Of a DNA stretch of 64,000 nt, positions 7,421 through 55,452 are shown in pieces. The translations under genes and the position numbers were made by a program. The notes under the pieces were generated by a model. That model was not told where the DNA came from and made no database searches. It saw only the letters and a program-made list of their open reading frames with translations. The stretch spans positions 79,725 to 143,724 of the forward strand of contig JAFGBF010000015.1 in assembly GCA_016933255.1 (NCBI GenBank), in the 5' to 3' direction. The stretch comes from Candidatus Krumholzibacteriota bacterium (GTDB lineage: Bacteria; Krumholzibacteriota; Krumholzibacteriia; Krumholzibacteriales; Krumholzibacteriaceae). Position 1 is the stretch's first letter. Every line of letters starts with the position of its first letter.

Positions 7421-8266
7421 ATGATCGGCGGGGTATTGGAAGATCTCTATACAAGATACAATGACAGGGATTTTGTCGAACCGGACCCCTTGCATTTTCT
7501 TTTCAGGTACGATGATATCCGGGACCGTGAAATTGCGGGGTTGATAGCGTCTTCTCTTGCCTTTGGAAGTGTCGGCCAGATAATGAAGAGCGTGGAAAAG
7601 GTCCTGGGGGTCATGTGCGGTTCGCCGGGGGAATATCTTTCCAGGGCGGACAGGACAGGGATGCGAAAGGAGTTTGAAGGATTCAGGCACAGGTGGGTCG
7701 ATCAGGAAGCGCTGATAAATCTTCTTGACGGTATCAAAACTGCCGTGAGAAAATTCGGAACCCTCGAGAAATGTTTCGCATCCGGATATTCCAATAAGGA
7801 CAGGGATATTGTTCCCGCGCTTACGGCTTTTGTGGACGAGATCATAGGTTCAGGGAAAGTCAATCGGCTGGTCCCTTCTCCATCTCGAGGCAGCGCCTGT
7901 AAAAGGCTGAATCTTTTTCTGAGATGGATGATCCGTTCCGATGGAGTCGATCCGGGGGGCTGGAATATGATCTCATCGTCAAAACTGGTGATCCCCCTTG
8001 ACGTGCATATGCATCGGTTTTCGATACTTCTCGGTTTGACAGAGCGCAATCAGGCAGACCTGAAAACCGCGAGGGAAGTAACAGAAAGTATGAAGATCTT
8101 TTCGCCTGTGGATCCGGTCAAATATGATTTTGCCTTAACCAGGCTCGGGATAAGGCGCGATGATGACAGGGAAAGCCTGCTGATGAGGCTTGGAATCGGT
8201 ATCGACCAGTCGGGAAAGATAAGGCGGGTCATTGAAGGTCAGTCAGAGCGGGGGAGTGTAAGTTGA
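7421..8266 (+). CDS. DUF2400 (TIGR02757) family protein of unknown function.
   Basis: Motifs KRLNLFLRWMIR, IPLDVH and DPVKYDFAL match my recollection of DUF2400 family conservation. It starts 3 nt after the Fur-family stop. Confidence 0.6.
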   Translation: MIGGVLEDLYTRYNDRDFVEPDPLHFLFRYDDIRDREIAGLIASSLAFGSVGQIMKSVEKVLGVMCGSPGEYLSRADRTGMRKEFEGFRHRWVDQEALINLLDGIKTAVRKFGTLEKCFASGYSNKDRDIVPALTAFVDEIIGSGKVNRLVPSPSRGSACKRLNLFLRWMIRSDGVDPGGWNMISSSKLVIPLDVHMHRFSILLGLTERNQADLKTAREVTESMKIFSPVDPVKYDFALTRLGIRRDDDRESLLMRLGIGIDQSGKIRRVIEGQSERGSVS

Positions 8267-9525
8267 AGGAGTTTTTCCTGAATTTTATTCTGGAGCTTTT
8301 CGGGACTCTTAAAGAGATGTCTCCCTATCTGATCTTCGGATTTTTTGTCGCCGGCCTTCTCTCGGTCTTTATCAGGCCCGAGACGGTAGAAAAACATCTT
8401 GGAGGAGGCGGTTTTCTACAGGTGATAAAAGCATCTCTTTTCGGTGTGCCTCTTCCATTGTGTTCGTGCGGAGTCATTCCAGTTGCAGTATCTCTGAGAA
8501 AGCATGGGGCAAGCAGGGGCGCGATGACTTCGTTTCTGATCTCGACTCCCCAGACGGGGATAGACAGCATATTTGTCACTTTGAGCCTGCTTGGGCCCGT
8601 CTATGCCGTATTCAGGCCTATAGTCGCTTTTGTCAGCGGTATCGTCGGAGGAGCAGCGGTAAATATTCTTGTGAAGAACGGTGACGACCAGACTCAGGAA
8701 GTTCCTGTCTGCAGAGACGCCTGCTGTACGGCAGATGGAAACCGACGAAAATTTACGGAAGTCTTTCAATACGCGTTCAGGACCCTTCCGGCTGATATCA
8801 ATAAGGCACTGATCTTCGGTATAGTCATAGCGGGTGTCATCGGGGCCCTTATACCCGATGACTTTCTCACCGGCATTCTCGGAGGCGGGATCGTAGCGAT
8901 GCTGGCGATGATGGCACTCGGGATACCGATCTATGTGTGCGCTACAGCTTCGGTCCCGATCGCGGCGGCCATTATTGCCAAAGGGGTCTCGCCCGGCGCG
9001 GCGCTTGTATTTCTTATGACCGGGCCTGCCACCAACGCCGCTGCCGTTCTGGCGTTGGGAAAGATCCTGGGGAAGAGATCGGCCGTAATATACCTTGCCA
9101 CGCTGGCCGTGTCGGCGGTAACCGCAGGCATTCTTCTCGACCTTGTCTACAGTTCTCCAAATGTAGCTCAACCGGCCGGCATGCCGTTTATGCTTCCGGA
9201 GTGGGTCAAGGTATCGAGCGCGGCAGTACTTTCAGCGGTCATTGCTGCCTCATTCTTCCAAAGGCGGAAGGCGGTTTTTCGGGAAGGCGGCACCGGAGAA
9301 GAAAAAATTATAATCAAGATCGAAGGTATGACATGTCAACATTGCGTTAATAGCATTAAACGCACAATTCTGGAGACTTCCGGCGTGGAAGGCGCGGAGG
9401 TCGATCTGAAAAGAGGTGATGCGGTAATATGGGGAAAACGACTCGATCAGTCCCGGTTTGTTGAATCTTTGGGATCACTGGGATATAAAGTTACCGGACG
9501 GGAAGAATTCCCGCGATCTGAGTGA
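8263..9525 (+). CDS. Permease (COG0701/DUF318-like with a CSCG motif) carrying a C-terminal heavy-metal-associated (HMA) domain.
   Basis: Multi-TM region contains CSCGVIPVA. The C-terminal roughly 70 aa are IKIEGMTCQHCVNSIKRTILETSGVEGAEVDL, a MxCxxC HMA fold. TTG start with GGGGGAG RBS, overlapping the DUF2400 stop by 4 nt. Confidence 0.6.
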   Translation: MKEFFLNFILELFGTLKEMSPYLIFGFFVAGLLSVFIRPETVEKHLGGGGFLQVIKASLFGVPLPLCSCGVIPVAVSLRKHGASRGAMTSFLISTPQTGIDSIFVTLSLLGPVYAVFRPIVAFVSGIVGGAAVNILVKNGDDQTQEVPVCRDACCTADGNRRKFTEVFQYAFRTLPADINKALIFGIVIAGVIGALIPDDFLTGILGGGIVAMLAMMALGIPIYVCATASVPIAAAIIAKGVSPGAALVFLMTGPATNAAAVLALGKILGKRSAVIYLATLAVSAVTAGILLDLVYSSPNVAQPAGMPFMLPEWVKVSSAAVLSAVIAASFFQRRKAVFREGGTGEEKIIIKIEGMTCQHCVNSIKRTILETSGVEGAEVDLKRGDAVIWGKRLDQSRFVESLGSLGYKVTGREEFPRSE

Positions 9526-21131: not shown

Positions 21132-22562
21132 TTACTTTTTCTTCTTGGATGACCTGAAATCCTCAGGGTCGATCTCGTGTTTTTTCATCAGATCGTGAAG
21201 AGTAGGCCGGCTTATCTTGAGTTCCTGCGATGCGGCTGAGACATTCCCGGAGAATCTGAGTAATACATCGATTATCATTCTTTGTTCCAGGTCTTCACGG
21301 GCTTCTTTGAGAGAGACGCCCGCCTCCGGAGGAATACGGGCAGGAGCGGATTCTGCCTGTTTATTTTTTTCGTCTTCAGGGCCGGGAAAAACAAGGTCCA
21401 TGTCCTCCGGCTGAATGATCCTTCCAGATGTCATGATCACAGCTCTCTTGACTCTGTTTTCTAGTTCGCGTACATTTCCGGGCCATGAGTGGCTATAGAG
21501 GACATTGCGCGCCGATTGGCCGAAGGCTCTTACATTTCTTGAGAACTCGGAATTAAAATGATGAAGGAAATGCATCGCAAGCAGGAGTATATCCTGCCCT
21601 CTGTCACGAAGAGGAGGAAGGGATATATTGATCGTGTTTATCCTGTAGTAGAGATCTTCCCTGAAAGTCCTTTCGCCGATCATCTTCGAGAGGTCCCTGT
21701 TAGTAGCGGCGATCACTCTGATATCGAGCTGTATCTGCTGCTGCCCTCCCACTCTTTCTATTACGTGGTCCTGAAGGAATCTGAGGATCTTGACCTGAAG
21801 AGCCAGGGGAAGTTCGCCGATCTCATCGAGAAAGATAGTTCCTCCCTCAGCGATCTCGAATTTTCCCGGTTTTGAAGAGACTGCCCCTGTGAAGCTTCCT
21901 TTTTCATGGCCGAACAATTCGCTCTCAAGCAGATTTTCAGGTATTGCGCCGCAATTGATCGGTATAAAGGGTCTGTTCTTCCGCGGGCTTCTCGCATGTA
22001 TAGCCCTTGCTATAAGCTCCTTGCCGGTCCCGCTTTCACCGGTTATGAGGACCGATACATCGGTGGGAGCTATTTTCTTGACGGCGTCGAATATATCAAG
22101 CATACCCGCAGACATGGATATTATATTTTCGAATTCGTGTCCGCTCCCGGGAGAAGACTTCAGTCTGGTTATCGTCGATTCAAGGGAGTGTATGTAGGAA
22201 GCCCGGCTCAGAATAACGCGGAGTTCATCGATATCCACCGGTTTTGAGTAGAAATCGATAGCGCCCGACGCGAGGGCTCTTAGAGCGTTTTCCTTGTAGT
22301 CGTGGCCTGTTATTACGATGACCTTGATCTGCGGGTCTATCTGCAGGGCCATCTCGAGGATTTGAAACCCCTCAAACTCATCCGTGTCGCCTGTCAGAGA
22401 AAGATCCAGGATCATCAGCTGCGGCGATTCTTCTTTTACAGCATTGACAGCCTCTTCTATGGTGCGGGCCTTGATGACCTCATATTTGTTTTTAAAAGCC
22501 CATTCGAGTTGTTTGAGGATGGTCTCCTCGTCATCGACGATCAAAAGTCTGGGTGATCCCAA
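21132..22562 (-). CDS. prsR: Sigma-54-dependent response regulator (NtrC/AtoC class), PrsR-like.
   Basis: REC domain (LLIVDDEE...D). AAA+ sigma-54 interaction domain (GESGTGKE, GAFTGA) and C-terminal Fis-type HTH. Lies immediately downstream of the PrsK-like kinase. Confidence 0.8.
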   Translation of the reverse strand: MGSPRLLIVDDEETILKQLEWAFKNKYEVIKARTIEEAVNAVKEESPQLMILDLSLTGDTDEFEGFQILEMALQIDPQIKVIVITGHDYKENALRALASGAIDFYSKPVDIDELRVILSRASYIHSLESTITRLKSSPGSGHEFENIISMSAGMLDIFDAVKKIAPTDVSVLITGESGTGKELIARAIHARSPRKNRPFIPINCGAIPENLLESELFGHEKGSFTGAVSSKPGKFEIAEGGTIFLDEIGELPLALQVKILRFLQDHVIERVGGQQQIQLDIRVIAATNRDLSKMIGERTFREDLYYRINTINISLPPLRDRGQDILLLAMHFLHHFNSEFSRNVRAFGQSARNVLYSHSWPGNVRELENRVKRAVIMTSGRIIQPEDMDLVFPGPEDEKNKQAESAPARIPPEAGVSLKEAREDLEQRMIIDVLLRFSGNVSAASQELKISRPTLHDLMKKHEIDPEDFRSSKKKK

Positions 22563-22577: not shown

Positions 22578-24683
22578 TTATTCTGATCCGGTTCCCGGCA
22601 GTATAATCGAGACAGAAGCGCCTTTTCCAGAAAGATTATCGATCGATATAGTGCCTCCATGTGCTTCTGCCATCGATTTACATAGAGCAAGGCCTATGCC
22701 CAGGCCGTTTTTTCGGGTCGAGCTGAATGGCTTGAAAAGGTCGTTTTTAATATAGTCAGGATCGAAGCCCTTTCCAGTATCAGACACATTGAGTCTCAAT
22801 CCGAATGGATCTTCCGAAGTAAGGCGAACCGATATCTTTCCTCCTCTCGGTGTTGCTTCTATCGAATTGAGTATCAGGTTCTCCACAATTCTTTCAATAG
22901 CGGATGGATCGATATCAGCGATTATCTGTTCAGATGGAGAATATTCAAGAGTGATATTTTTAGATCCAGCCATCGGCACAAGCTGTTCTATCTTTTCTCC
23001 TACAAGCGATACCGCTTCTGTCCGTACTCTGTTTACGGCTCCTGAATATTTGTGAGCGTTCAGAGAATTGATCAGGCTCTGCATCCTCTCTATCGATCTT
23101 TTAATCGTTATTATTGTATCTTTCTGAAATTCCTTGTTTTCCATGTTTTCTCTTGCGTTTTCAGCGGTAAGAGAAAGGATCTCGACGGTGTTTTTAAGGT
23201 CATGGATGACGAATGACGCGAACCGGTTGAACGATTCGATCTGTTTCGATTCAAGGAATCTTTCCTCCATAAGGAGGTTGTCAAGGGTGATAGCGGCCTG
23301 GTCGGCGATAGTAGCAAGGAAACTTCGGTCTTCTTCGCTGAAGGGAGCTCCTGTATCCTTTCTGCCCAGAGCTATAAAGCCCTTACACTCCTCCCCGTGG
23401 CCGAGAGGCAGAGCAGACTCGATCCATTCAGGGATATTTTCCGTATCAAGCTCGATTTTTGCTTCTGTCGAGGAGTGTTTCCTCCTGCCGGATCTTTTGT
23501 TAAATACCGTCAATTCGTCAGCTGTACACAGTTCCATCAGCCTGTTTGACGTCTCAGGAGTCCAGTCATCGCCTGTTGCTCCATAAGACGCTTCGATCCC
23601 GTTGTGGATATCGACCCATATGATGCCTCTCTGGACGATCATCGTCTCACAGAGCGATCCGATCGTGTTTGAGAGGAAATCATCTATTGTAAGGCTCGTG
23701 GCCATCAATCTTGAGAAATGACGCCACTCCTTTCGATAATTATAATTCTCAAGATAGAAATTATCATTCAGGAATATTCGAAGCTTTCTTCTCGCCCTTC
23801 CCGACATTCCGACGGCAAGCAGAAGAAATATGATAAAAATCCCTAAAACATAAAGATGGAATCTGTCATATGACATTCCGGCCAGGGCCGAGATCCACGA
23901 TATGATGGCAATCGATATAAAGTAGAGCCCGGCTACCACCACCGACACGGTCGATGATTTTTCTTTCAAAACAGGTGTCCTGATCTCGAATAGATTGTAT
24001 CTCGAATTCGCGTAGATAAAAGTTGTAGTGATGAAAATTATTCCGCAGGTTTCGACTGTCAGGAAACGCCGGTCGACCGAAGATAACGATAAAATCCGGC
24101 TCATTACCACGAAATTCAGAAATGATGCGGTTATTGTGCCGAGCATCGGGTATTTGAGAGTGACCTTGCCCTGGATATTTGCTGCTCTGTATGTGTTTTC
24201 CATGAAGTAGAGATAGCATACATTCACCAGAAGGAAAAAGATCCCGAACCCTTTGCCCAGCCAGGTAAAGACGATCTGATAAAAATATCCGTTTTCCTCG
24301 AAGGATATGCTTCTGATGATATAATGAAGCGGAGTGATGAGGCCGATCGCGGAAAAAATGATCAGAATGGTCAGAATCCCTGTGATCCTGTTTTTCAGCG
24401 GGTTATCTCCACGGTTCCGTGCGAAGAAATAGAAAAACGGAAGACCGAAGGCAGGGGATAATAGAGCGGCCACAAGCAGCAGTCGCAAAAATACCTGCGC
24501 CTGCTCGGGAGAATCCGCCCTTAGCAGAAGTCCCTGTGCGGCGGTGAAGAAAGCCAGGATCAGCGTCGATGGGATAAAGAAAAGTTTCTGATAATTAAAA
24601 CTTCCTCTTGTCAAACCTGCCCACAAAAGGAGGACAAGCAGTCCAGATGCAGTAAATGACAGTAGCGGAGCAAACAGGGTCAT
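22578..24683 (-). CDS. prsK: Sensor histidine kinase with a long polytopic N-terminal domain; PrsK-like (exosortase-system associated).
   Basis: About 300 aa of TM helices, then a cytoplasmic region. HisKA box FVIHDLKNTVEIL. HATPase_c (GLGIGLALCKSMAEAHGG). 701 aa and gene context match TIGR02916-type PrsK. Confidence 0.7.
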   Translation of the reverse strand: MTLFAPLLSFTASGLLVLLLWAGLTRGSFNYQKLFFIPSTLILAFFTAAQGLLLRADSPEQAQVFLRLLLVAALLSPAFGLPFFYFFARNRGDNPLKNRITGILTILIIFSAIGLITPLHYIIRSISFEENGYFYQIVFTWLGKGFGIFFLLVNVCYLYFMENTYRAANIQGKVTLKYPMLGTITASFLNFVVMSRILSLSSVDRRFLTVETCGIIFITTTFIYANSRYNLFEIRTPVLKEKSSTVSVVVAGLYFISIAIISWISALAGMSYDRFHLYVLGIFIIFLLLAVGMSGRARRKLRIFLNDNFYLENYNYRKEWRHFSRLMATSLTIDDFLSNTIGSLCETMIVQRGIIWVDIHNGIEASYGATGDDWTPETSNRLMELCTADELTVFNKRSGRRKHSSTEAKIELDTENIPEWIESALPLGHGEECKGFIALGRKDTGAPFSEEDRSFLATIADQAAITLDNLLMEERFLESKQIESFNRFASFVIHDLKNTVEILSLTAENARENMENKEFQKDTIITIKRSIERMQSLINSLNAHKYSGAVNRVRTEAVSLVGEKIEQLVPMAGSKNITLEYSPSEQIIADIDPSAIERIVENLILNSIEATPRGGKISVRLTSEDPFGLRLNVSDTGKGFDPDYIKNDLFKPFSSTRKNGLGIGLALCKSMAEAHGGTISIDNLSGKGASVSIILPGTGSE

Positions 24684-26170
24684 TTTAGGTCCTTCATTCT
24701 GTTAATATGTTTTTCTGCCTCTTTTGACACATTCGATTCAGGATACATCTCTACGCATCTTTCCAGGGCCTCGACAGCTTTTCCCTTATCACCAAGTTCT
24801 TTCTCATAGATAGACGCGGCCGTAAGGAAACTTTGGGCAAGCCTGGGGTATTGCGGATATCTTGCCGGAAGCGAAAGGAGCCGTTCCGCGGTTTTTTCCC
24901 ATTTTTTCTGCAGAGAGAGAGTCCGGATGAAGTATTCTTCGGCTTTAATTCTTATTCCAGCGTCATATTCTTTTGCAGTCATCATATCATAATGCTCCAG
25001 AGCTCTCTCGTAGGCATTTTTGGCGGCGTCGGCTTCTCCCAGCTTTTCAAAATGCATGGCGATCATGAGCGGAGACTCCATTCCCTGGAAAGTAGTTGGA
25101 AAACTGGTGTATATTGATTTGTAGTGCAGAGAAGCATCTACCCAGTTGCCGCGTTTATCCGAGATATTTGCAAGCTGCCAGGTCGCTTCAACTACTCCGC
25201 TTGCCGATGAAGCATGTTCTTTTATGACCTGATTATATATTTTTTCAGCTTCATCGTATCTCTTTGCCTCCTGGTGTATCTGTCCGAGCATCAGTAGCGC
25301 GGTGACCGTCTCCTGCGAATCAGGGAATTCTTTGATTATGGCCGTCAGGATCGAAGCTGCTTTATCCTGATTGCCAAACCCGTCCATCTCTATCTTTGCT
25401 TCAATGAACATTATCGACGGCCTGTCTTTTACCGTAGGGTATTGTTCCTCCATCTCCTTCAGGAGAGCCATGGCACTATCCCATTTCCGCTGTTCGAGCA
25501 GGGCTGTGACCAGGTTAAACCTTGTCTCTTTGAGAAGGGAAGGGTCCGCCGTTGTAGATATTATATCTCTGTATATCATTTCGCCCCTGCTCAGCCAGGC
25601 AGATCTTTTATTTTTCATATCCGGGCCTAAGTACAGTTTTGAGAGCCTGATAGGGACGAGAAGATACCTTCTGTTCATCATCGATGTCTTTTCGATATCC
25701 CCGCTGCCGAGAAATTCATCCGAAAACTTTTCAAATAGTGATATTGCCGATGGAATATCCCCGATCTGTTCGGATATGAACGCTGAGGACCAAAGAGCGT
25801 TGGCACGGGCTTTGGGGATATTGCCGGAAATGGAGTAAGCTTTTTGAAAATCATCGATAGCGCTCTTAAGGCTGCCTGTCCGGAATTCGAGCTCGGCAAG
25901 CTCCATTTGAGAGGAAACAACTATCAACTCCATGCCGTCGACGCTGTCGGCGTATGATGAATACCGATCTACTATCGAACGGTAGCTTTCTACGGTTCTG
26001 TCCACGAATTCCCTGTTCGTGGTGCCTGAAGGGAGTTCACGGTTCAGTTTTCTGGCATGGAAAAGTTCTTTTTCCGCTTTATAGAGCAGTGATTTTTCTT
26101 CGCTCGAGCACGCAAAGACCATAGCGGCCATCAGCAGGACAGCTGCCAACAGATTCATTCTTTTTTTCAT
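24680..26170 (-). CDS. TPR-repeat lipoprotein, possibly a short PrsT-like protein.
   Basis: Signal peptide plus lipobox (LLMAAMVFACSS). Multiple TPR-like helical repeats. 4-nt overlap with the prsK start. Confidence 0.55.
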   Translation of the reverse strand: MKKRMNLLAAVLLMAAMVFACSSEEKSLLYKAEKELFHARKLNRELPSGTTNREFVDRTVESYRSIVDRYSSYADSVDGMELIVVSSQMELAELEFRTGSLKSAIDDFQKAYSISGNIPKARANALWSSAFISEQIGDIPSAISLFEKFSDEFLGSGDIEKTSMMNRRYLLVPIRLSKLYLGPDMKNKRSAWLSRGEMIYRDIISTTADPSLLKETRFNLVTALLEQRKWDSAMALLKEMEEQYPTVKDRPSIMFIEAKIEMDGFGNQDKAASILTAIIKEFPDSQETVTALLMLGQIHQEAKRYDEAEKIYNQVIKEHASSASGVVEATWQLANISDKRGNWVDASLHYKSIYTSFPTTFQGMESPLMIAMHFEKLGEADAAKNAYERALEHYDMMTAKEYDAGIRIKAEEYFIRTLSLQKKWEKTAERLLSLPARYPQYPRLAQSFLTAASIYEKELGDKGKAVEALERCVEMYPESNVSKEAEKHINRMKDLK

Positions 26171-26212: not shown

Positions 26213-27097
26213 TCAATTCAGTCTGTTTTTCATCCTTTGCAGGAATATTACTGTTCCTCCTGCTGTTATAAGATATATGGATATCATCTCAATGACTGAT
26301 GAGACGATGTAATTGTGAATAATAAAATCGGGAGAGAGCCTTGTGGCGATCAATGCCGATTTAATGCTGATAAATGTCGTCGGGACCGTGAGAATGAACG
26401 GGATAAAAACAATAAAGAATGTCGTAGCTGGGCAATTCCAGGCGATACTTATGCTTACCCTGAAAGATCTAAAGAGGTTTGAATCGTAAAGCAGGATTGC
26501 CGGAGTAGTGTACAGGAATAACCCCTGAATAGCGAGGGCAACAGCCATACTGACGGCATAAACGGTATTACCCGCAATCGGGCTCAGACTGGCTCTGAAA
26601 TTTCCCGCGAGAAAAAATACGAGAAAGATGAAAAGGGAAGCAAATAAAGAGATCAGAAACAGCTGAAGATATTTCCCGAACGCAGCCCGGAATGCCCCGG
26701 CAAACGATAACGACCTCCCGGTGATCCCGCTGTATATGAGGACTGTCGTTGCACCCTGGAAAATTATATTTATGAATATTTCAACGAATATATCGACGCG
26801 GTCAAGAATGGGCTGCATCAGTACGATATGATCCGGAAAATGACCGAGGTCTGAGCTGGAGAGGCCGCCTATAAAGAGAGCCCAGAAGGATGATGAAGGC
26901 GGATCGAGGCTTGAAAGATATGAGATCAGGATGCCGAGATGGAGGATAAGAAAAAAGAAAGATGGAACGGCGATCCGAAAATCTTTCAGGATCGATACAG
27001 AAGTGTGGAATGTATTTATGGTTTCCTTGAATCCTCCGGCATAATCAAACCGTTTCCCAGGAGCTCCGCCGTCAATAATGAGTCTTTTCGACATCAA
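26213..27097 (-). CDS. Polytopic integral membrane protein of unknown function (about 8 TM) inside the exosortase operon.
   Basis: 294 aa with strongly hydrophobic segments throughout. ATGA overlap with the EpsI stop. No recognisable catalytic motif. Confidence 0.45.
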   Translation of the reverse strand: MMSKRLIIDGGAPGKRFDYAGGFKETINTFHTSVSILKDFRIAVPSFFFLILHLGILISYLSSLDPPSSSFWALFIGGLSSSDLGHFPDHIVLMQPILDRVDIFVEIFINIIFQGATTVLIYSGITGRSLSFAGAFRAAFGKYLQLFLISLFASLFIFLVFFLAGNFRASLSPIAGNTVYAVSMAVALAIQGLFLYTTPAILLYDSNLFRSFRVSISIAWNCPATTFFIVFIPFILTVPTTFISIKSALIATRLSPDFIIHNYIVSSVIEMISIYLITAGGTVIFLQRMKNRLN

Positions 27098-27786
27098 TCC
27101 TCGTTTCTTTGCTCTACAGGCGATGCTGATTTCAGGGCTGACATTATATCGGGGCTTATTCTTTCGATGAATCTCAACATCGTTTTTTCGGTCTTTTCGT
27201 CGCCTCCCGGCCTAACGCCTGTAGAAAAGCGGATAAACGACGCAGCCTGGGGGCGGGAAAGAAGTGTGTTCTTCATCTGATGATATTTCAACGAAAATTC
27301 ATCGGGGATGGCTTTACCGTTCATACTGAACCAGTAGATGACCAGCCTGTGGGATTTCCCGTCTGTTATTACCAATCGCTTGACGCTTTCCAGCTCATTG
27401 TTGAGATTTATCTCGATCCGGTCTTCCTTTATGATATCCCAGCCGGCACCAGGGTAACAATGTTTTGGAGAATGGATCTGCGAATTTTCCTGCTGCCGGG
27501 CGAAATACCCGAGAAAGAGTTCTATCTTTATCCCCGTTTCTCCGGTATATGAACGTACAAGCGTTGTATCTGCTCCCAGAACCCTCAGAGATTCGATCCC
27601 GATATAATAGTCATCGGAGAGATACGATCCCGTCTCTGCCGGTATGAGGCTGAAATCCGGCAAAGGAGCCTCTTCAATATCTCTTTTACGCAATCGGTGC
27701 GTATAGATCGTCAGCAATAGGAGTATTACAACAATGATGACCAGGCTGTTCAGTTTTATTTTATCCATTTCAATATCCTGATACAA
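27094..27786 (-). CDS. epsI: Exosortase-associated EpsI-family protein.
   Basis: N-terminal TM helix then a periplasmic domain. Overlaps the exosortase gene end; the likely true start is ATG 27768 (MDKIK). EpsI is canonically adjacent to exosortases. Confidence 0.55.
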   Translation of the reverse strand: MYQDIEMDKIKLNSLVIIVVILLLLTIYTHRLRKRDIEEAPLPDFSLIPAETGSYLSDDYYIGIESLRVLGADTTLVRSYTGETGIKIELFLGYFARQQENSQIHSPKHCYPGAGWDIIKEDRIEINLNNELESVKRLVITDGKSHRLVIYWFSMNGKAIPDEFSLKYHQMKNTLLSRPQAASFIRFSTGVRPGGDEKTEKTMLRFIERISPDIMSALKSASPVEQRNED

Positions 27787-28610
27787 AGAAGAAGCAGTAG
27801 GAGCCCGGCTGCAAAGACTATCAAGCCTGAAATCTCATGAATCGTTCCATCAGCAAATTCGGGTCCTATCGTGTAGGCTCCCAGTGCTGTTACAGTCAGG
27901 CGGATCGCATTTGCTGCTATCGCTACAGGTATCGATAACGCCACGAGAATGACGTTTTTCGTTTTAGAAAATCCGGAAAAAATCGTAAGAATAACAGCGA
28001 TCGTAACCATAGTCATAAGGGAACGCAGTCCGCTGCAGGCGGCGACTACTTCCAGGGTATATCCGGGAAGATGGAGTATATTGCCTTTTCTTATGACGCT
28101 TACTCCGGTTGACTGGAGGATATAAGTGCTTAACCTGGCGCTGAAAAGCTGCATAGGGAAGGTGAGTCTGTAGTAAATGATATATGGCAAAGGAACAGCC
28201 AGCACCAGAAAGAGGACAGGGAAGGCGACAATTCTGAAGATCCCCGATCCCATAAGAAAAAGAACGCTTCCCAGTATAAGGAGCGGAAAAGATATGCGGG
28301 ATGAAAAAAGCTCTGAAGCTGCCGTGCCGGCTACAAGCAGCAGAGCTGATACAAATATTATTAAAAGCCCCGTATAATAGTATCCTCCATCTGGATTTTT
28401 TCTCAGTTCCCTGCGCCGTTTCCAGAGAATAAAAACCGAGACGACAGGGATAACGATCCCGTGCTGATAATTCGGGTCATCTATCCATTGCCTGAACAGG
28501 CTGGTAATGACAGGGGAATACATTACGGATATCAGAACCAGACTCATGCCGAGCAGTATTCTTTTAAGGAGCAGAGTGCTGTTCCCCTCTTGCCTGGATA
28601 TATCGGACAA
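27756..28610 (-). CDS. xrt: Exosortase (EpsH/Xrt family transpeptidase).
   Basis: 284 aa, about 8 TM. Conserved active-site motif VVAACSGLRSLMTM (Cys and Arg). TTG start with an AAAGGAG RBS. Confidence 0.8.
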   Translation of the reverse strand: MSDISRQEGNSTLLLKRILLGMSLVLISVMYSPVITSLFRQWIDDPNYQHGIVIPVVSVFILWKRRRELRKNPDGGYYYTGLLIIFVSALLLVAGTAASELFSSRISFPLLILGSVLFLMGSGIFRIVAFPVLFLVLAVPLPYIIYYRLTFPMQLFSARLSTYILQSTGVSVIRKGNILHLPGYTLEVVAACSGLRSLMTMVTIAVILTIFSGFSKTKNVILVALSIPVAIAANAIRLTVTALGAYTIGPEFADGTIHEISGLIVFAAGLLLLLLCIRILKWIK

Positions 28611-28703: not shown

Positions 28704-28740
28704 CAATAAAAAAACGGACGCAGGTGATTCTGCGTCCGTT
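28704..28740 (-). terminator. Strong rho-independent terminator between the PEP-CTERM substrate genes and the exosortase.
   Basis: Perfect 11-bp stem AACGGACGCAG/CTGCGTCCGTT with a 6-nt loop. On the minus strand it is followed by TTTTTTTATT. Confidence 0.75.
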
Positions 28741-28767
28741 CGAGGCCTGCAAGAAAAAGAAGTGTAA

Positions 28768-29475
28768 TCACGTTTTCTTTTTCTTTCTCAGAAGAGGAGT
28801 TATCCCGAGAAGTCCCAGGCCCAAAAGGCTGAGTGTGCCAGGTTCAGGAACCGCAAAACAACTTGAATCGTGGGAATTGGGGCTGACATAGCATTTACCG
28901 TTTGAATCCATCCCTATCGCGTCAAAGTTTACATAATCGAACCCGCTGACAACGATATCGAGTAACACTTCATCTCCCCAACCCGGTTCATGGATCCATC
29001 CTTCTTCGTAATGCCACGCCTTTGCCATAGAGTTATTTATTCTTCCGGCATCATAAAAATTGAAATTTTTGATGCTCGGAAGCATAGTCTTCACATACCA
29101 GTCCGGAGCGGCCGCAGCCAGTCCGGGGTCGCCGTAGTTGTAGAATGTGTTGATCTCGATTCCGTTGATCCATACAGTCCCGGATTGTCCTGTCGGAGTA
29201 TTTATGACGACAAAGACATCCATATAATCATACGCCGGGGGAGAGGTCACCAGATCTATAGATGGAGTCACTTCGGGAAGTGTTTCCCAGTACCCGACAA
29301 CTTTCAGCTCAAAATTGGCTGATGTAGAGATCCATGAGTCCTCATCCTCGAGGGCATAATTTGCGTAGTAGTCAGAGCCTGTAATATAGGTCTGAAGCCT
29401 TGGGACCGCTGAGGCAGAATCGGCAATTAGAGACCCGGCCAATACCGCTACGGTCAGAAGTAAAATCTTTTTCAT
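28768..29475 (-). CDS. PEP-CTERM sorting-domain protein, paralog B.
   Basis: Signal peptide MKKILLLTVAVLAGS. C-terminus VPEPGTLSLLGLGLLGITPLLRKKKKT (PEP motif, TM helix, basic tail). GGAGG RBS before ATG 29475. Confidence 0.85.
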   Translation of the reverse strand: MKKILLLTVAVLAGSLIADSASAVPRLQTYITGSDYYANYALEDEDSWISTSANFELKVVGYWETLPEVTPSIDLVTSPPAYDYMDVFVVINTPTGQSGTVWINGIEINTFYNYGDPGLAAAAPDWYVKTMLPSIKNFNFYDAGRINNSMAKAWHYEEGWIHEPGWGDEVLLDIVVSGFDYVNFDAIGMDSNGKCYVSPNSHDSSCFAVPEPGTLSLLGLGLLGITPLLRKKKKT

Positions 29476-29516
29476 TCGTATCCTCCGCACACAGTTTATA
29501 GTAATCAGCATTATCA

Positions 29517-30230
29517 TTATTTTTTCTTTCTCAGAAGAGGAGTTATCCCGAGAAGTCCCAGGCCCAAAAGGCTGAGCGTGCCAGGTTCAGGAACAGGATA
29601 GAAAGCTGTCGCATCGCAATCCCACGGATTGGTGTAGGTCACGCCTCTCGCGTCGAGTCCTATAGCGTCAAAATGTGTCCAGGAGAATCCCTTGGTCACG
29701 ACTTTAAAATCGATTTCCTGGCCATGTCCGGGAAGCTGAGGTGTACCGTCAATGTGGTCATAATAGTACGCCTGATGCTGGTTGTCGAGACCACCCTCAA
29801 TCTCATAGAAATTGAACTTTCCAAAGAGAGCCGGAGGAGCAATCCGCAGATACCACGCAGGGTTTGTTTCGTCAGGCACCGCATCGCAGTAGTTATAGAA
29901 AGTGCTGATCTCCACTCCGTCTATCCAGACTGTCCCCGACTGGCACATCGGGACGCTGATCGCGATCCAGGTTCTCATCTGATCACGTTCCGGATAAGCT
30001 GAGCCCACATTCAGAGGGGAGTCCGGATTAATGTCCTCTTCCCAGTACCCCACGACCCTCAGGTCGAATTCCTGCGAATATGTGACAAACGAATACTGGT
30101 CGAGCAGGCTGTGGAATTGTTCGTATTCTGAACCAACTATATAGGTCTGGAGCCTGGGGACCGCTGCGGCAGAGCCGGTAAAGAGCGCCAGAACAAGCAA
30201 AATGCCGGCAAAAGAAGTGACTTTCTTCAT
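29517..30230 (-). CDS. PEP-CTERM sorting-domain protein, paralog A.
   Basis: Signal peptide MKKVTSFAGILLVLALFTGSAAA. Identical C-terminal VPEPGTLSLLGLGLLGITPLLRKKK. Shares internal motifs with paralog B (VPRLQTYI, TVWI.G.EI.TFYNY). Confidence 0.85.
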   Translation of the reverse strand: MKKVTSFAGILLVLALFTGSAAAVPRLQTYIVGSEYEQFHSLLDQYSFVTYSQEFDLRVVGYWEEDINPDSPLNVGSAYPERDQMRTWIAISVPMCQSGTVWIDGVEISTFYNYCDAVPDETNPAWYLRIAPPALFGKFNFYEIEGGLDNQHQAYYYDHIDGTPQLPGHGQEIDFKVVTKGFSWTHFDAIGLDARGVTYTNPWDCDATAFYPVPEPGTLSLLGLGLLGITPLLRKKK

Positions 30231-30298: not shown

Positions 30299-30313
30299 GC
30301 AATCTGCGTGCCA
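30299..30313 (-). promoter_or_regulatory. Sigma-54 (RpoN) promoter driving the PEP-CTERM gene pair.
   Basis: The minus strand reads TGGCAC-gcaga-TTGC, a perfect match to the -24/-12 consensus TGGCAC-N5-TTGC. It sits about 70 nt upstream of the ATG at 30230. Confidence 0.75.
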
Positions 30314-30451: not shown

Positions 30452-31054
30452 TCAGCGGCTTTTTCGGGTTCTTGTCGATCCAAGCGATCCGAACGAGGAA
30501 CTTCTGCTTCTTCTCGTGCTTGAACTGAATCTTGATCCAAAACCTGGGCTGTTCCTCATCGAGCCGCGGCGTACGCTGGTGTTTATGTTGATATTTACAG
30601 GGTTTACGGTCTGGCGCCGATTTCCTCCCCGGACTATGCTCGAGGGCGAAGCCATCATCCCCGTGCCTCGAGAAGCTCCATTTCTCGTCCTGCTTGTCTG
30701 AGGCATAAAGGAGCCGGATATTCCTTTATGGGTATAGCCGGAAGCTTTGAGATCCGCACTCCATCCGGTCCTCTGCTGGCGCATATTTCTGTTTCCTGCC
30801 AGCGCTGCCGGCCTTCTGAACTCTTGAGATGACCTTTCGATCCCGGTCGACCAGCCGGCAGGCCCGGTTTTTCTTGAACTGATTACAGATGAACGGGTCA
30901 CAGCTTTCTGCCAGTCTCTGTCGACTGCATCGCTCTGGTTTTTAGCCCACTTTGAGAATTCACTGTTTTCCTTTGCGCAGGCATCGGTGCCGGCAAAGAA
31001 CAACGGATTTATTACAATAACCAGCAACACTGCGGTTGCGATCAAGTAACGCAT
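30452..31054 (-). CDS. Secreted, Arg/Ser/Gly-rich low-complexity protein of unknown function.
   Basis: Clear signal peptide (MRYLIATAVLLVIVINPLFFAGTDA). The rest is basic and disordered (SRFSSSTRRSRSSSFGSLGSTRTRKSR). Preceded by a near-consensus sigma-70 promoter. Confidence 0.5.
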   Translation of the reverse strand: MRYLIATAVLLVIVINPLFFAGTDACAKENSEFSKWAKNQSDAVDRDWQKAVTRSSVISSRKTGPAGWSTGIERSSQEFRRPAALAGNRNMRQQRTGWSADLKASGYTHKGISGSFMPQTSRTRNGASRGTGMMASPSSIVRGGNRRQTVNPVNININTSVRRGSMRNSPGFGSRFSSSTRRSRSSSFGSLGSTRTRKSR

Positions 31055-54172: not shown

Positions 54173-55027
54173 TCAGTCGGCGATAGTAAAGTTGACGGCT
54201 GCAGAGCGGCCCTCGACCTCGACGAGACTTTTTAAAGCATCGCAGGAAGCGATAATGGGACGATCAGAAGAAACTGCATCAGGGTTCGCAAGAATCTTGA
54301 ATGAAATATTGTCAAGATCCTCGAAAAGTACCAGACCAAAGCTGGCTACGAGGATAGGACCCTGAAACGCTTCGTACATCTCTCTTTCAAAGGCGACCGC
54401 CATTCCGGCGAAAGGATCACCCATCGATACGGAGACGTAGCTTGGGAATGAAACATATGTGTGAGAATACTGTGTTCCAAGACCAAGTGGGTTGTCATCG
54501 CTGTCATACATGTTGATCATGAACTCAGTTGCTGAGGCGCAACCGACTTCGCATTCTTCAAGCATGATAAAGATATGACAATCAAGTGCGGAAAACGCGC
54601 CGGTTTCTGCACCGCATACTGACGCTTCTTCGTCAAAGAAGATGGCCAGTGAAGGGTTCGACGGAACATCGACGTTCAGTGTCAATTCCGCTGTTGCCGA
54701 GTGCGGTGTGTCGGCAGCATCAAAACATTCTACGCTGAATGTATGCTCCTCGACCGATTCCAGCATCCCGACTATCTTACCATCGGTTGAAAGACTTATG
54801 CCGGACGGCAAAGTCGAGCCAACAGCAAGGGACCAGGTGTAGGGCGCTGTTCCGCCAGTTGCTTCGAGGGTGAAATTGTAAGGTGTACAAGTGTAACCCT
54901 GCGAAAGCTCTGTCGTTGATACTTCCAACTCCTCAGGGGTCGGAGTAACGGTTGTGCTATCATCCGAGCAGGAAATAATTATACCGCTCAATGATAAAAC
55001 TAACAGGACTGCGAAGACCTTCCTCAT
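54173..55027 (-). CDS. Lipoprotein with putative Ig-like domain(s).
   Basis: Start set at MRKVFAVLLVLSLSGIIISCSDD, which has an AAGGAGG RBS. The Ig-like segment reads YTCTPYNFTLEATGGTAPYTWSL. Confidence 0.5.
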   Translation of the reverse strand: MRKVFAVLLVLSLSGIIISCSDDSTTVTPTPEELEVSTTELSQGYTCTPYNFTLEATGGTAPYTWSLAVGSTLPSGISLSTDGKIVGMLESVEEHTFSVECFDAADTPHSATAELTLNVDVPSNPSLAIFFDEEASVCGAETGAFSALDCHIFIMLEECEVGCASATEFMINMYDSDDNPLGLGTQYSHTYVSFPSYVSVSMGDPFAGMAVAFEREMYEAFQGPILVASFGLVLFEDLDNISFKILANPDAVSSDRPIIASCDALKSLVEVEGRSAAVNFTIAD

Positions 55028-55452
55028 GATGAGACCTCCTTCTCTTCGAGTGAGTCCATTATTGTCCCCTCGGGCTCTTTTCAGCAACCTGTGTGCCAAT
55101 TCCTGCAATAGTGATTTGTGTCAGTGTAAACGTCCTTCTTATAAGGAGATATACGTATAAGCCCCTGTCCGCCCCGCAGCCTTTATATCCTTTTTGAATT
55201 CTCATTATGCCATGAATGGCCTTATAGTGTGTTCTGGTACTGAGATGTCTTTAATTCAACTTCAGGCTGTACAGTAAGGACCAGATAGGGAAGCGGAAAA
55301 AGAAGATGAATAGATCTTTGCCTGCAGGTGTATCGATATGTGGAGCAATCAATGATTGTGGCTGTCTTCAATAACAGATATACTGTGCAGCGGACAGAGG
55401 ACAAAAGGTTTGGGGCTGAGTTTCCATTTCGGCCCCGGAATGGAGGATAGAA

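Follow-up and report, generated by a model that had tools for sequence, protein, structure and literature searches.

Genes A and B, which lie next to one another in a 64,000 nucleotide (nt) stretch of DNA from a Candidatus Krumholzibacteriota bacterium (GenBank assembly GCA_016933255.1, contig JAFGBF010000015.1, positions 79,725 to 143,724; the whole of this stretch is referred to here as the window), encode secreted choice-of-anchor N surface proteins, each of which carries a PEP-CTERM sorting signal (the tail) at its C-terminus. The segments encoding the two tails are almost identical, at synonymous as well as non-synonymous sites, in genes that are otherwise only 52 % identical. This identity is probably the product of concerted evolution in which interlocus gene conversion acted on the tail alone, a reading drawn from the comparison of sequences across related genomes. 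Both the process and the sorting system are known, and no new element or mechanism is involved; what is new is a short example of the process that is limited to one domain.

The tails form a direct repeat of two 74 nt copies that are 99 % identical and offset by 743 nt (Table 1). The sole mismatch, T at 28834 versus C at 29577 on the forward strand, is synonymous, as it affects only the last base of a Thr codon (ACA in one copy, ACG in the other). Dinucleotide-preserving shuffles of the window never produced a comparable pair (expected number 0.00). The repeated segment encodes V-PEP-GTLSLLGLGLLGITPLLRKK plus two bases of the following Lys codon, with identity beginning one codon ahead of PEP and stopping within the Lys run. 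The original prediction, which was made from the sequence of the window, had described near-identical segments with a single T/C difference, and this is correct, but the coordinates it gave (28778..28852 and 29520..29594) were one base out of register and the true copies are 74 nt long. It had also taken the shared identity to span the stop region, which it does not, as past the shared 74 nt gene A ends with ...KKKKT-TGA and gene B with ...KKK-TAA.

Outside the tail, A and B share 40 % amino acid (aa) and 52 % nt identity in the body, and 35 % aa and 52 % nt identity in the signal peptide, in agreement with the upstream divergence originally described. The possibility that the whole genes are about 95 % identical, which the prediction itself had named as the finding that would overturn it, was checked and is incorrect. 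After the tail, the second most similar stretch is a conserved box near the 5′-end.

Across approximately 120 homologs, the tail peptide PEPGTLSLLGLGLLG hardly varies; hence, amino acid identity between the tails of A and B is to be expected and it is the synonymous sites that are decisive. When only residues identical in A and B were considered (Met and Trp excluded), the same codon was used for 23 of 25 residues in the tail, as against 34 of 77 (44 %) in the signal peptide and body. The probability of an excess of this size is low by each of the measures used (binomial p = 7e-7, Fisher p = 1.3e-5, all-site permutation p = 3-5e-4).

Genes of both the A and the B type are carried by four lineages, namely the window, L001 (GCA_003369535.1), which has three genes in the order C-B-A, L038 (GCA_041560695.1; L039, L040 and L042 are identical to it over the parts that they cover) and L041, which has gene B and a truncated A. 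Most related loci have a single choice-of-anchor N gene beside the exosortase gene. A metagenome scan yielded 34 loci, nearly all with a single choice-of-anchor N gene, which were used for the tail alignment only; a scan of genome contigs with a single-protein query found one distant locus, L003, and a tail search with a 40 aa query found one candidate. No further A and B pair was present at the loci of P0006, P0011, P0013, P0008, P0009 and P0005.

In a neighbour-joining tree of the mature bodies, the A type genes (win_A, L002_x, L038_A and L001_A, where win denotes the window) and the B type genes (win_B, L041_B, L038_B and L001_B) each form a clade with 100 % bootstrap support. Both clades have the same internal order, (L001,(L038,(L041/L002, window))), and the single-copy genes of other genomes branch between them. 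Amino acid identities of the bodies are 71–79 % among A types, 63–75 % among B types and 40–53 % between A and B. The full bootstrap support and the congruent order imply that the duplication predates these genomes and, on this phylogenetic evidence, A and B are ancient paralogs whose duplication is much older than the genomes compared. A very recent duplication of the whole gene, which had been suggested originally, is thus excluded, orthologs of each gene being found in all four lineages.

The tails do not follow the bodies. In the window, the A and B tails are 97 % identical at the nucleotide level, with one mismatch inside the 74 nt repeat, and in L001 they are 94 % identical and include a perfect run of 68 nt (7880–7947 and 8631–8698), whereas the tails of the window and those of L001 share only 79–80 % identity. 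In both of these genomes, the tails therefore cluster by genome and not by ortholog. In L038, within-genome similarity of the tails does not exceed that between genomes (78 %); its A and B tails encode the same 26 residues using identical codons in 11 of 26 cases, a level equal to the 34 of 77 found outside the tail. Hence, L038 provides a control indicating that peptide selection, codon bias or a function at the nucleotide level do not force the tails to be identical. When old paralogs contain sharply bounded segments whose synonymous sites cluster by genome, the pattern is the classical mark of interlocus gene conversion. The first of the explanations initially proposed, conversion restricted to the sorting-signal module, is thus favoured by the ancient bodies, the grouping of the tails by genome and the within-genome identity of the tails.

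If gene conversion is responsible, purifying selection on the protein would keep the PEP-CTERM signals of A and B nearly invariant, and nowhere but in the tail would the two genes be similar enough for strand pairing and homologous recombination. A non-reciprocal recombination between the tails, 743 nt apart, would recently have overwritten one with the other, erasing the synonymous differences as far as the flanks on either side, which, at approximately 50 % identity, are too unlike to pair and would block extension of the heteroduplex. Once a tail had been converted, the perfect identity would favour further conversion and mutation would let the identity decay, as may have occurred in L038. 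The process would be episodic and recurrent, with independent occurrences in two or more lineages and decay in a further one.

The direction of the exchange can also be suggested. The window tails are 90–91 % identical to the A type tail of L038 and 79–81 % identical to its B type tail and, based on this closer match, the A type tail most likely replaced the B tail in the lineage of the window. Three codons that read CCT/CTC/TTG in both win_A and win_B are CCG/CTG/CTC in both L041_B and L002_x, which suggests that homogenisation went on after these close lineages had split. At the peptide level, the variant V..IT..RKKK is common to A and B in the clade made up of the window, L041 and L038, and the variant T..IA..RRK is common to A and B in L001, where the tail peptide is close to that of the nearest single-copy relatives L043, L046 and L005 (T..IA/VA..RKK). 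As the change from T to V takes two base changes, the economical reading would be that an older conversion occurred in the ancestor of the clade and later decayed at synonymous sites in L038.

A number of points weigh against gene conversion as the explanation. L001_C is only about 1 kb away yet remains unhomogenised (71–76 % identical), indicating that proximity alone does not predict conversion. Both paralogs are known in three to four lineages only, all of them metagenome assemblies, and the L041/L002 'lineage' was put together from two samples with flanks that are approximately 89 % identical. The tail trees rest on about 75 nt, conversion has been deduced from sequence comparison, and selection that favoured particular codons in parallel, genome by genome, is a formal alternative.

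A single, one-off replacement of the tail, or a partial duplication, in this genome without any recurrent conversion at the locus is improbable. Though only one such pair is present in the window and homogenisation is not seen in either L038 or L001_C, as would be expected of an isolated event, L001 acquired the pattern independently and with another tail sequence. An isolated event would also leave unexplained the genome-specific synonymous states that the paralogs have in common, which differ between the window and L041/L002, and the older V/IT peptide signature common to A and B across the clade.

Purifying selection on the peptide combined with codon-usage bias, and with no recombination, is very unlikely. 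While it would account for the near-invariance of the peptide within the family, L038 encodes the same peptide with few of its codons shared, third codon positions vary freely across the tails of 38 family members, and the baseline of codon identity at conserved residues is far below that of the tail.

There is likewise little to recommend the possibility that the 74 nt is a functional nucleic-acid element (an mRNA 3′ structure, the target of a regulatory RNA or a protein-binding DNA site) that is selected separately in each genome. A 9 bp hairpin, positions 41–49 with 59–67, is possible in most of the tails, with 82.5 % of cells paired, but it arises because Leu (CUY) and Arg/Lys (AGR/AAR) codons are complementary, and column shuffles are paired at 81.2 %, with 62 of 500 reaching the observed figure. 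The two copies fold no better than shuffles (z = -0.85 and -0.78), there is no excess of covariation (score 0.137 versus 0.124 for shuffles), the RNAalifold consensus is -1.36 kcal/mol and a search of Rfam gave no match at E ≤ 1. Moreover, the synonymous sites are not conserved between genomes. The tail is thus under no constraint at the nucleotide level, and selection acting on the RNA or DNA itself, which had been put forward as an alternative to conversion, finds no support in the free third positions or in the codons of L038.

An artefact of assembly or binning, with a repeat that had been collapsed or made chimeric in a metagenome-assembled genome (MAG), is hardly credible for, although the source is a MAG contig, one related contig (L041) ends in adapter sequence and L002 is possibly an assembly chimera, the 74 nt repeat is shorter than typical reads and keeps one mismatch, both copies are in frame within complete genes that have intact flanks, an independent MAG (L001) shows the same phenomenon with a different sequence, and the non-homogenised L038 type is agreed by four independent assemblies.

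If gene conversion is accepted, it is possible, though we regard it as somewhat doubtful, that homogenisation is itself favoured by selection because all substrates of one dedicated exosortase need a matched signal. As the exosortase and its signal co-evolve, each new tail variant, such as V..IT..RKKK in place of T..IA..RRK, would then be passed by conversion to all of the paralogs, and arrays of cargo genes would also expand, contract and be reshuffled through crossovers at the identical tails. If this were both true and general, selected homogenisation would be the mechanism by which C-terminal sorting signals, PEP-CTERM among them, come to have their long-noted species-specific 'flavours'.

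Recombination between units of the array is also hinted at by L002, which has one choice-of-anchor N gene (1150–1863) between the conserved upstream open reading frame (ORF) and the exosortase gene. When it was compared with L041:1028–2076 and with 29475–30230 in the window, the promoter and signal peptide, to approximately nt 60 of the gene, were of the B type (85–92 % like L041_B), and the body from the AVPKLQTYI box on was of the A type (95–97 % like L041_A). The gene may have arisen by unequal crossover at the 5′ conserved box, with the loss of one repeat unit, or may be a chimera created in assembly. The number of choice-of-anchor N genes varies, with one in L002, two in the window and three in L001. 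The original prediction had raised the possibility of a recombination hotspot for the swapping of cargo, and the L002 recombinant is a weak echo of this, but its junction is at the 5′ box and not in the tail, the bodies stay orthologous and no swapping of cargo was seen. At the end of the L041 contig (2077–2095), a Nextera adapter, CTGTCTCTTATACACATCT, followed by adapter-like sequence truncates the A type gene; this is contamination in a public metagenome assembly.

The features of the locus are listed in Table 1.

Table 1. Positions in the window of genes A and B, their repeated segments and the surrounding exosortase locus
Feature	Position	Strand	Details
Tail copy 1	28778..28851	-	Last 74 nt of the gene A coding sequence ahead of the final codons; PEP-CTERM sorting signal VPEPGTLSLLGLGLLGITPLLRKK
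Tail copy 2	29521..29594	-	3′-end of gene B; same 74 nt with a synonymous mismatch at 29577
Gene A	28768..29475	-	235 aa; signal peptide, choice-of-anchor N beta-sandwich body, PEP-CTERM tail; NF038141
Gene B	29517..30230	-	237 aa; paralog of A with the same architecture; NF038141
5′ conserved box, gene A	29368..29426	-	End of signal peptide and AVPRLQTYI; 78 % identical to 30123–30181 in gene B
Sigma-54 promoter consensus	30299..30313	-	TGGCACGCAGATTGC; perfect match, 69 nt upstream of gene B
Intrinsic terminator, hairpin and T-run	28712..28741	-	Predicted; past gene A, outside the shared 74 nt
Exosortase (EpsH family)	27756..28610	-	TIGR02602 194.7 bits (cut-off 105.55); PF09721 230.7 bits
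EpsI-family exosortase-associated protein	27094..27786	-	Separate gene; TIGR02914 106.1 bits (cut-off 42.8); PF11984
Conserved membrane protein	26213..27097	-	About 294 aa, multi-pass; no Pfam/NCBIfam match; follows EpsI; counterpart of 293–313 aa in related loci
TPR-repeat protein in PrsT position	24680..26170	-	TPR families (Pfam); TIGR02917 31.4 bits, under the cut-off of 312
PrsK, XrtA/PEP-CTERM system histidine kinase	22578..24683	-	TIGR02916 311.1 bits (cut-off 300)
PrsR, sigma-54-dependent PEP-CTERM-box response regulator	21132..22562	-	TIGR02915 564 bits (cut-off 502.6)
Conserved secreted or basic protein	30452..31054	-	200 aa, Arg/Ser-rich; no Pfam/NCBIfam match; upstream of gene B, syntenic in relatives

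The products of both genes pass the choice-of-anchor N model NF038141 (55.2 bits for A and 44.5 bits for B, cut-off 40) and also reach the cut-offs of the PEP-CTERM models TIGR02595 (20.5 and 19.5 bits, cut-off 16) and PF07589 (27.1 and 27.2 bits, cut-off 20.7). The gene A product is P0001 (100 % identical over 235 aa). An exact look-up of the gene B product returned no record, and P0100, which shares its length, both termini and its contig of 153 kb, is almost certainly this protein; the NCBI name of both P0001 and P0100 is choice-of-anchor N. The annotated start of gene A is the ATG at 29475, which has a ribosome binding site (RBS), GGAGGA, 7 nt upstream; a longer ORF reaches to 29517 but this is not the annotated start. 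In the AlphaFold model of the gene A product (pLDDT 80), a beta-sandwich is predicted between the signal peptide and a C-terminal helix. Comparison of this model with the PDB identified no convincing neighbour, the weak likeness (TM ≤ 0.3) being to Ig-like adhesin or pilin domains.

Genes B and A are probably transcribed together from the sigma-54 promoter. The gap between them is 41 nt and includes an RBS, and no terminator was predicted between them. Past gene A, the 147 nt 3′ region folds at z = -5.6. The sigma-54 consensus was found in 20 of the 47 related loci and, wherever the gene coordinates were checked, it is approximately 70–90 nt upstream of the first choice-of-anchor N gene. In five relatives (L044:4822–4836, L045:2657–2671, L006:1188–1202, L009:1145–1159 and L016:1093–1107), the consensus is also found between the choice-of-anchor N gene and the exosortase gene, which suggests separate sigma-54 control of the exosortase operon in these loci; there is no such consensus between these genes in the window. 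A second perfect consensus, TGGCACACAGGTTGC, is located at 55084–55098 on the minus strand, approximately 55 nt upstream of a lipoprotein-like ORF (about 54173–55030, minus strand), and may be another target of PrsR or sigma-54 in the window.

Given its adjacency and what is known of the family, the exosortase encoded next to gene A presumably processes the tails of both A and B. The exosortase and EpsI genes overlap, and their best matches among the specific models are to one half each of XrtW and XrtD, which are fused proteins. However, the models specific for XrtA, XrtW and XrtD all score under their cut-offs with this exosortase; for the XrtA model TIGR03109 the score is 189.3 bits (cut-off 208) and for the XrtW model NF038142 the separate exosortase and EpsI genes score 196.2 and 83.4 bits, respectively, against a cut-off of 425. 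Judged from these matches, the exosortase appears to be an unclassified subtype accompanied by PrsK and PrsR. The TPR-repeat protein likewise fell short of the cut-off of the PrsT model. The two conserved genes with no family match that are listed in Table 1, 30452–31054 and 26213–27097, are likely to be uncharacterised parts of this exosortase system.

The locus resembles the XrtW system with its choice-of-anchor N substrate (NF038142 and NF038141), as the substrate gene lies directly upstream of an exosortase gene whose best model match is XrtW, and this synteny is kept in most of the related loci. It differs in that exosortase and EpsI are separate (196 and 83 bits, versus 425), in that PrsK and PrsR, a feature of XrtA systems, are also present, and in that the substrate, single-copy in most relatives, is duplicated. 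The shared arrangement of conserved sorting or anchoring ends around variable exposed regions in paralogs that are tandem or close together, with the ends acting as recombination substrates, is known from the streptococcal emm-like genes and from slpA/slpB of Lactobacillus. Those systems differ from A and B in using LPXTG/sortase or S-layer anchoring, in belonging to other phyla and in having longer shared segments, and antigenic or phase variation is not implied for A and B.

PEP-CTERM regions have been found to be much more alike within species than between species, and this was attributed to a recent paralogous expansion of a modular domain; the same study described the sigma-54 site and PrsK/PrsR/PrsT (Haft et al. 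2006, PMC1569441). The locus examined here is of the kind described there, with within-genome similarity of the tails, a sigma-54 site, PrsK and PrsR. Though the earlier observations were made at the protein level and explained by recent expansion, here the paralogs are old and the similarity at synonymous sites is limited to the tail. Nucleotide-level evidence is thus available as to why PEP-CTERM signals look species-specific and, at least here, it points to conversion among old paralogs rather than to recent expansion (PMC1569441). In the literature searched, no paper connects gene conversion to PEP-CTERM.

Gene conversion is known to cause concerted evolution in bacterial paralogs, for example in tufA/tufB (PMC6053082 and references there). 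As in cases of the tufA/tufB type, paralogs within a genome are closer to one another than to their orthologs, the effect extends to synonymous and non-synonymous sites, and it recurs across lineages, but here it is limited to a tract of approximately 70 nt that covers one domain of the genes. A 2018 survey considered full-length cases only (PMC6053082), and very short, domain-limited concerted evolution in bacteria is a class that surveys of full-length genes will miss. Sequences will be grouped by genome in any phylogeny or orthology assignment that is drawn from sorting-signal regions, and tandem PEP-CTERM arrays should be considered recombination-prone.

Tails of the same flavour are also found on other bodies (P0156 and P0172). 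A HMMER search with the 32 aa tail recovered mostly long ORFs with multiple tails, and in P0122 (2500 aa), P0156 (369 aa) and P0172 (454 aa) there are 2–10 internal PEP-CTERM-like segments each, the basic clusters of which run in frame, with no stop and no Met, into the signal-peptide-like stretch of the next unit. The two tails in P0156 share an identical core of 19 residues, PEPASLSLLGLGLLGLLRKK. These three are either polyprotein-like arrays of exosortase substrates or the result of read-through in gene calling. A further choice-of-anchor N/PEP-CTERM gene, L043:4001–4720, which branches next to the A clade, adjoins no exosortase gene and sits among genes for proteins with T9SS (Por_Secre_tail) C-terminal domains in a MAG labelled Bacteroidales.

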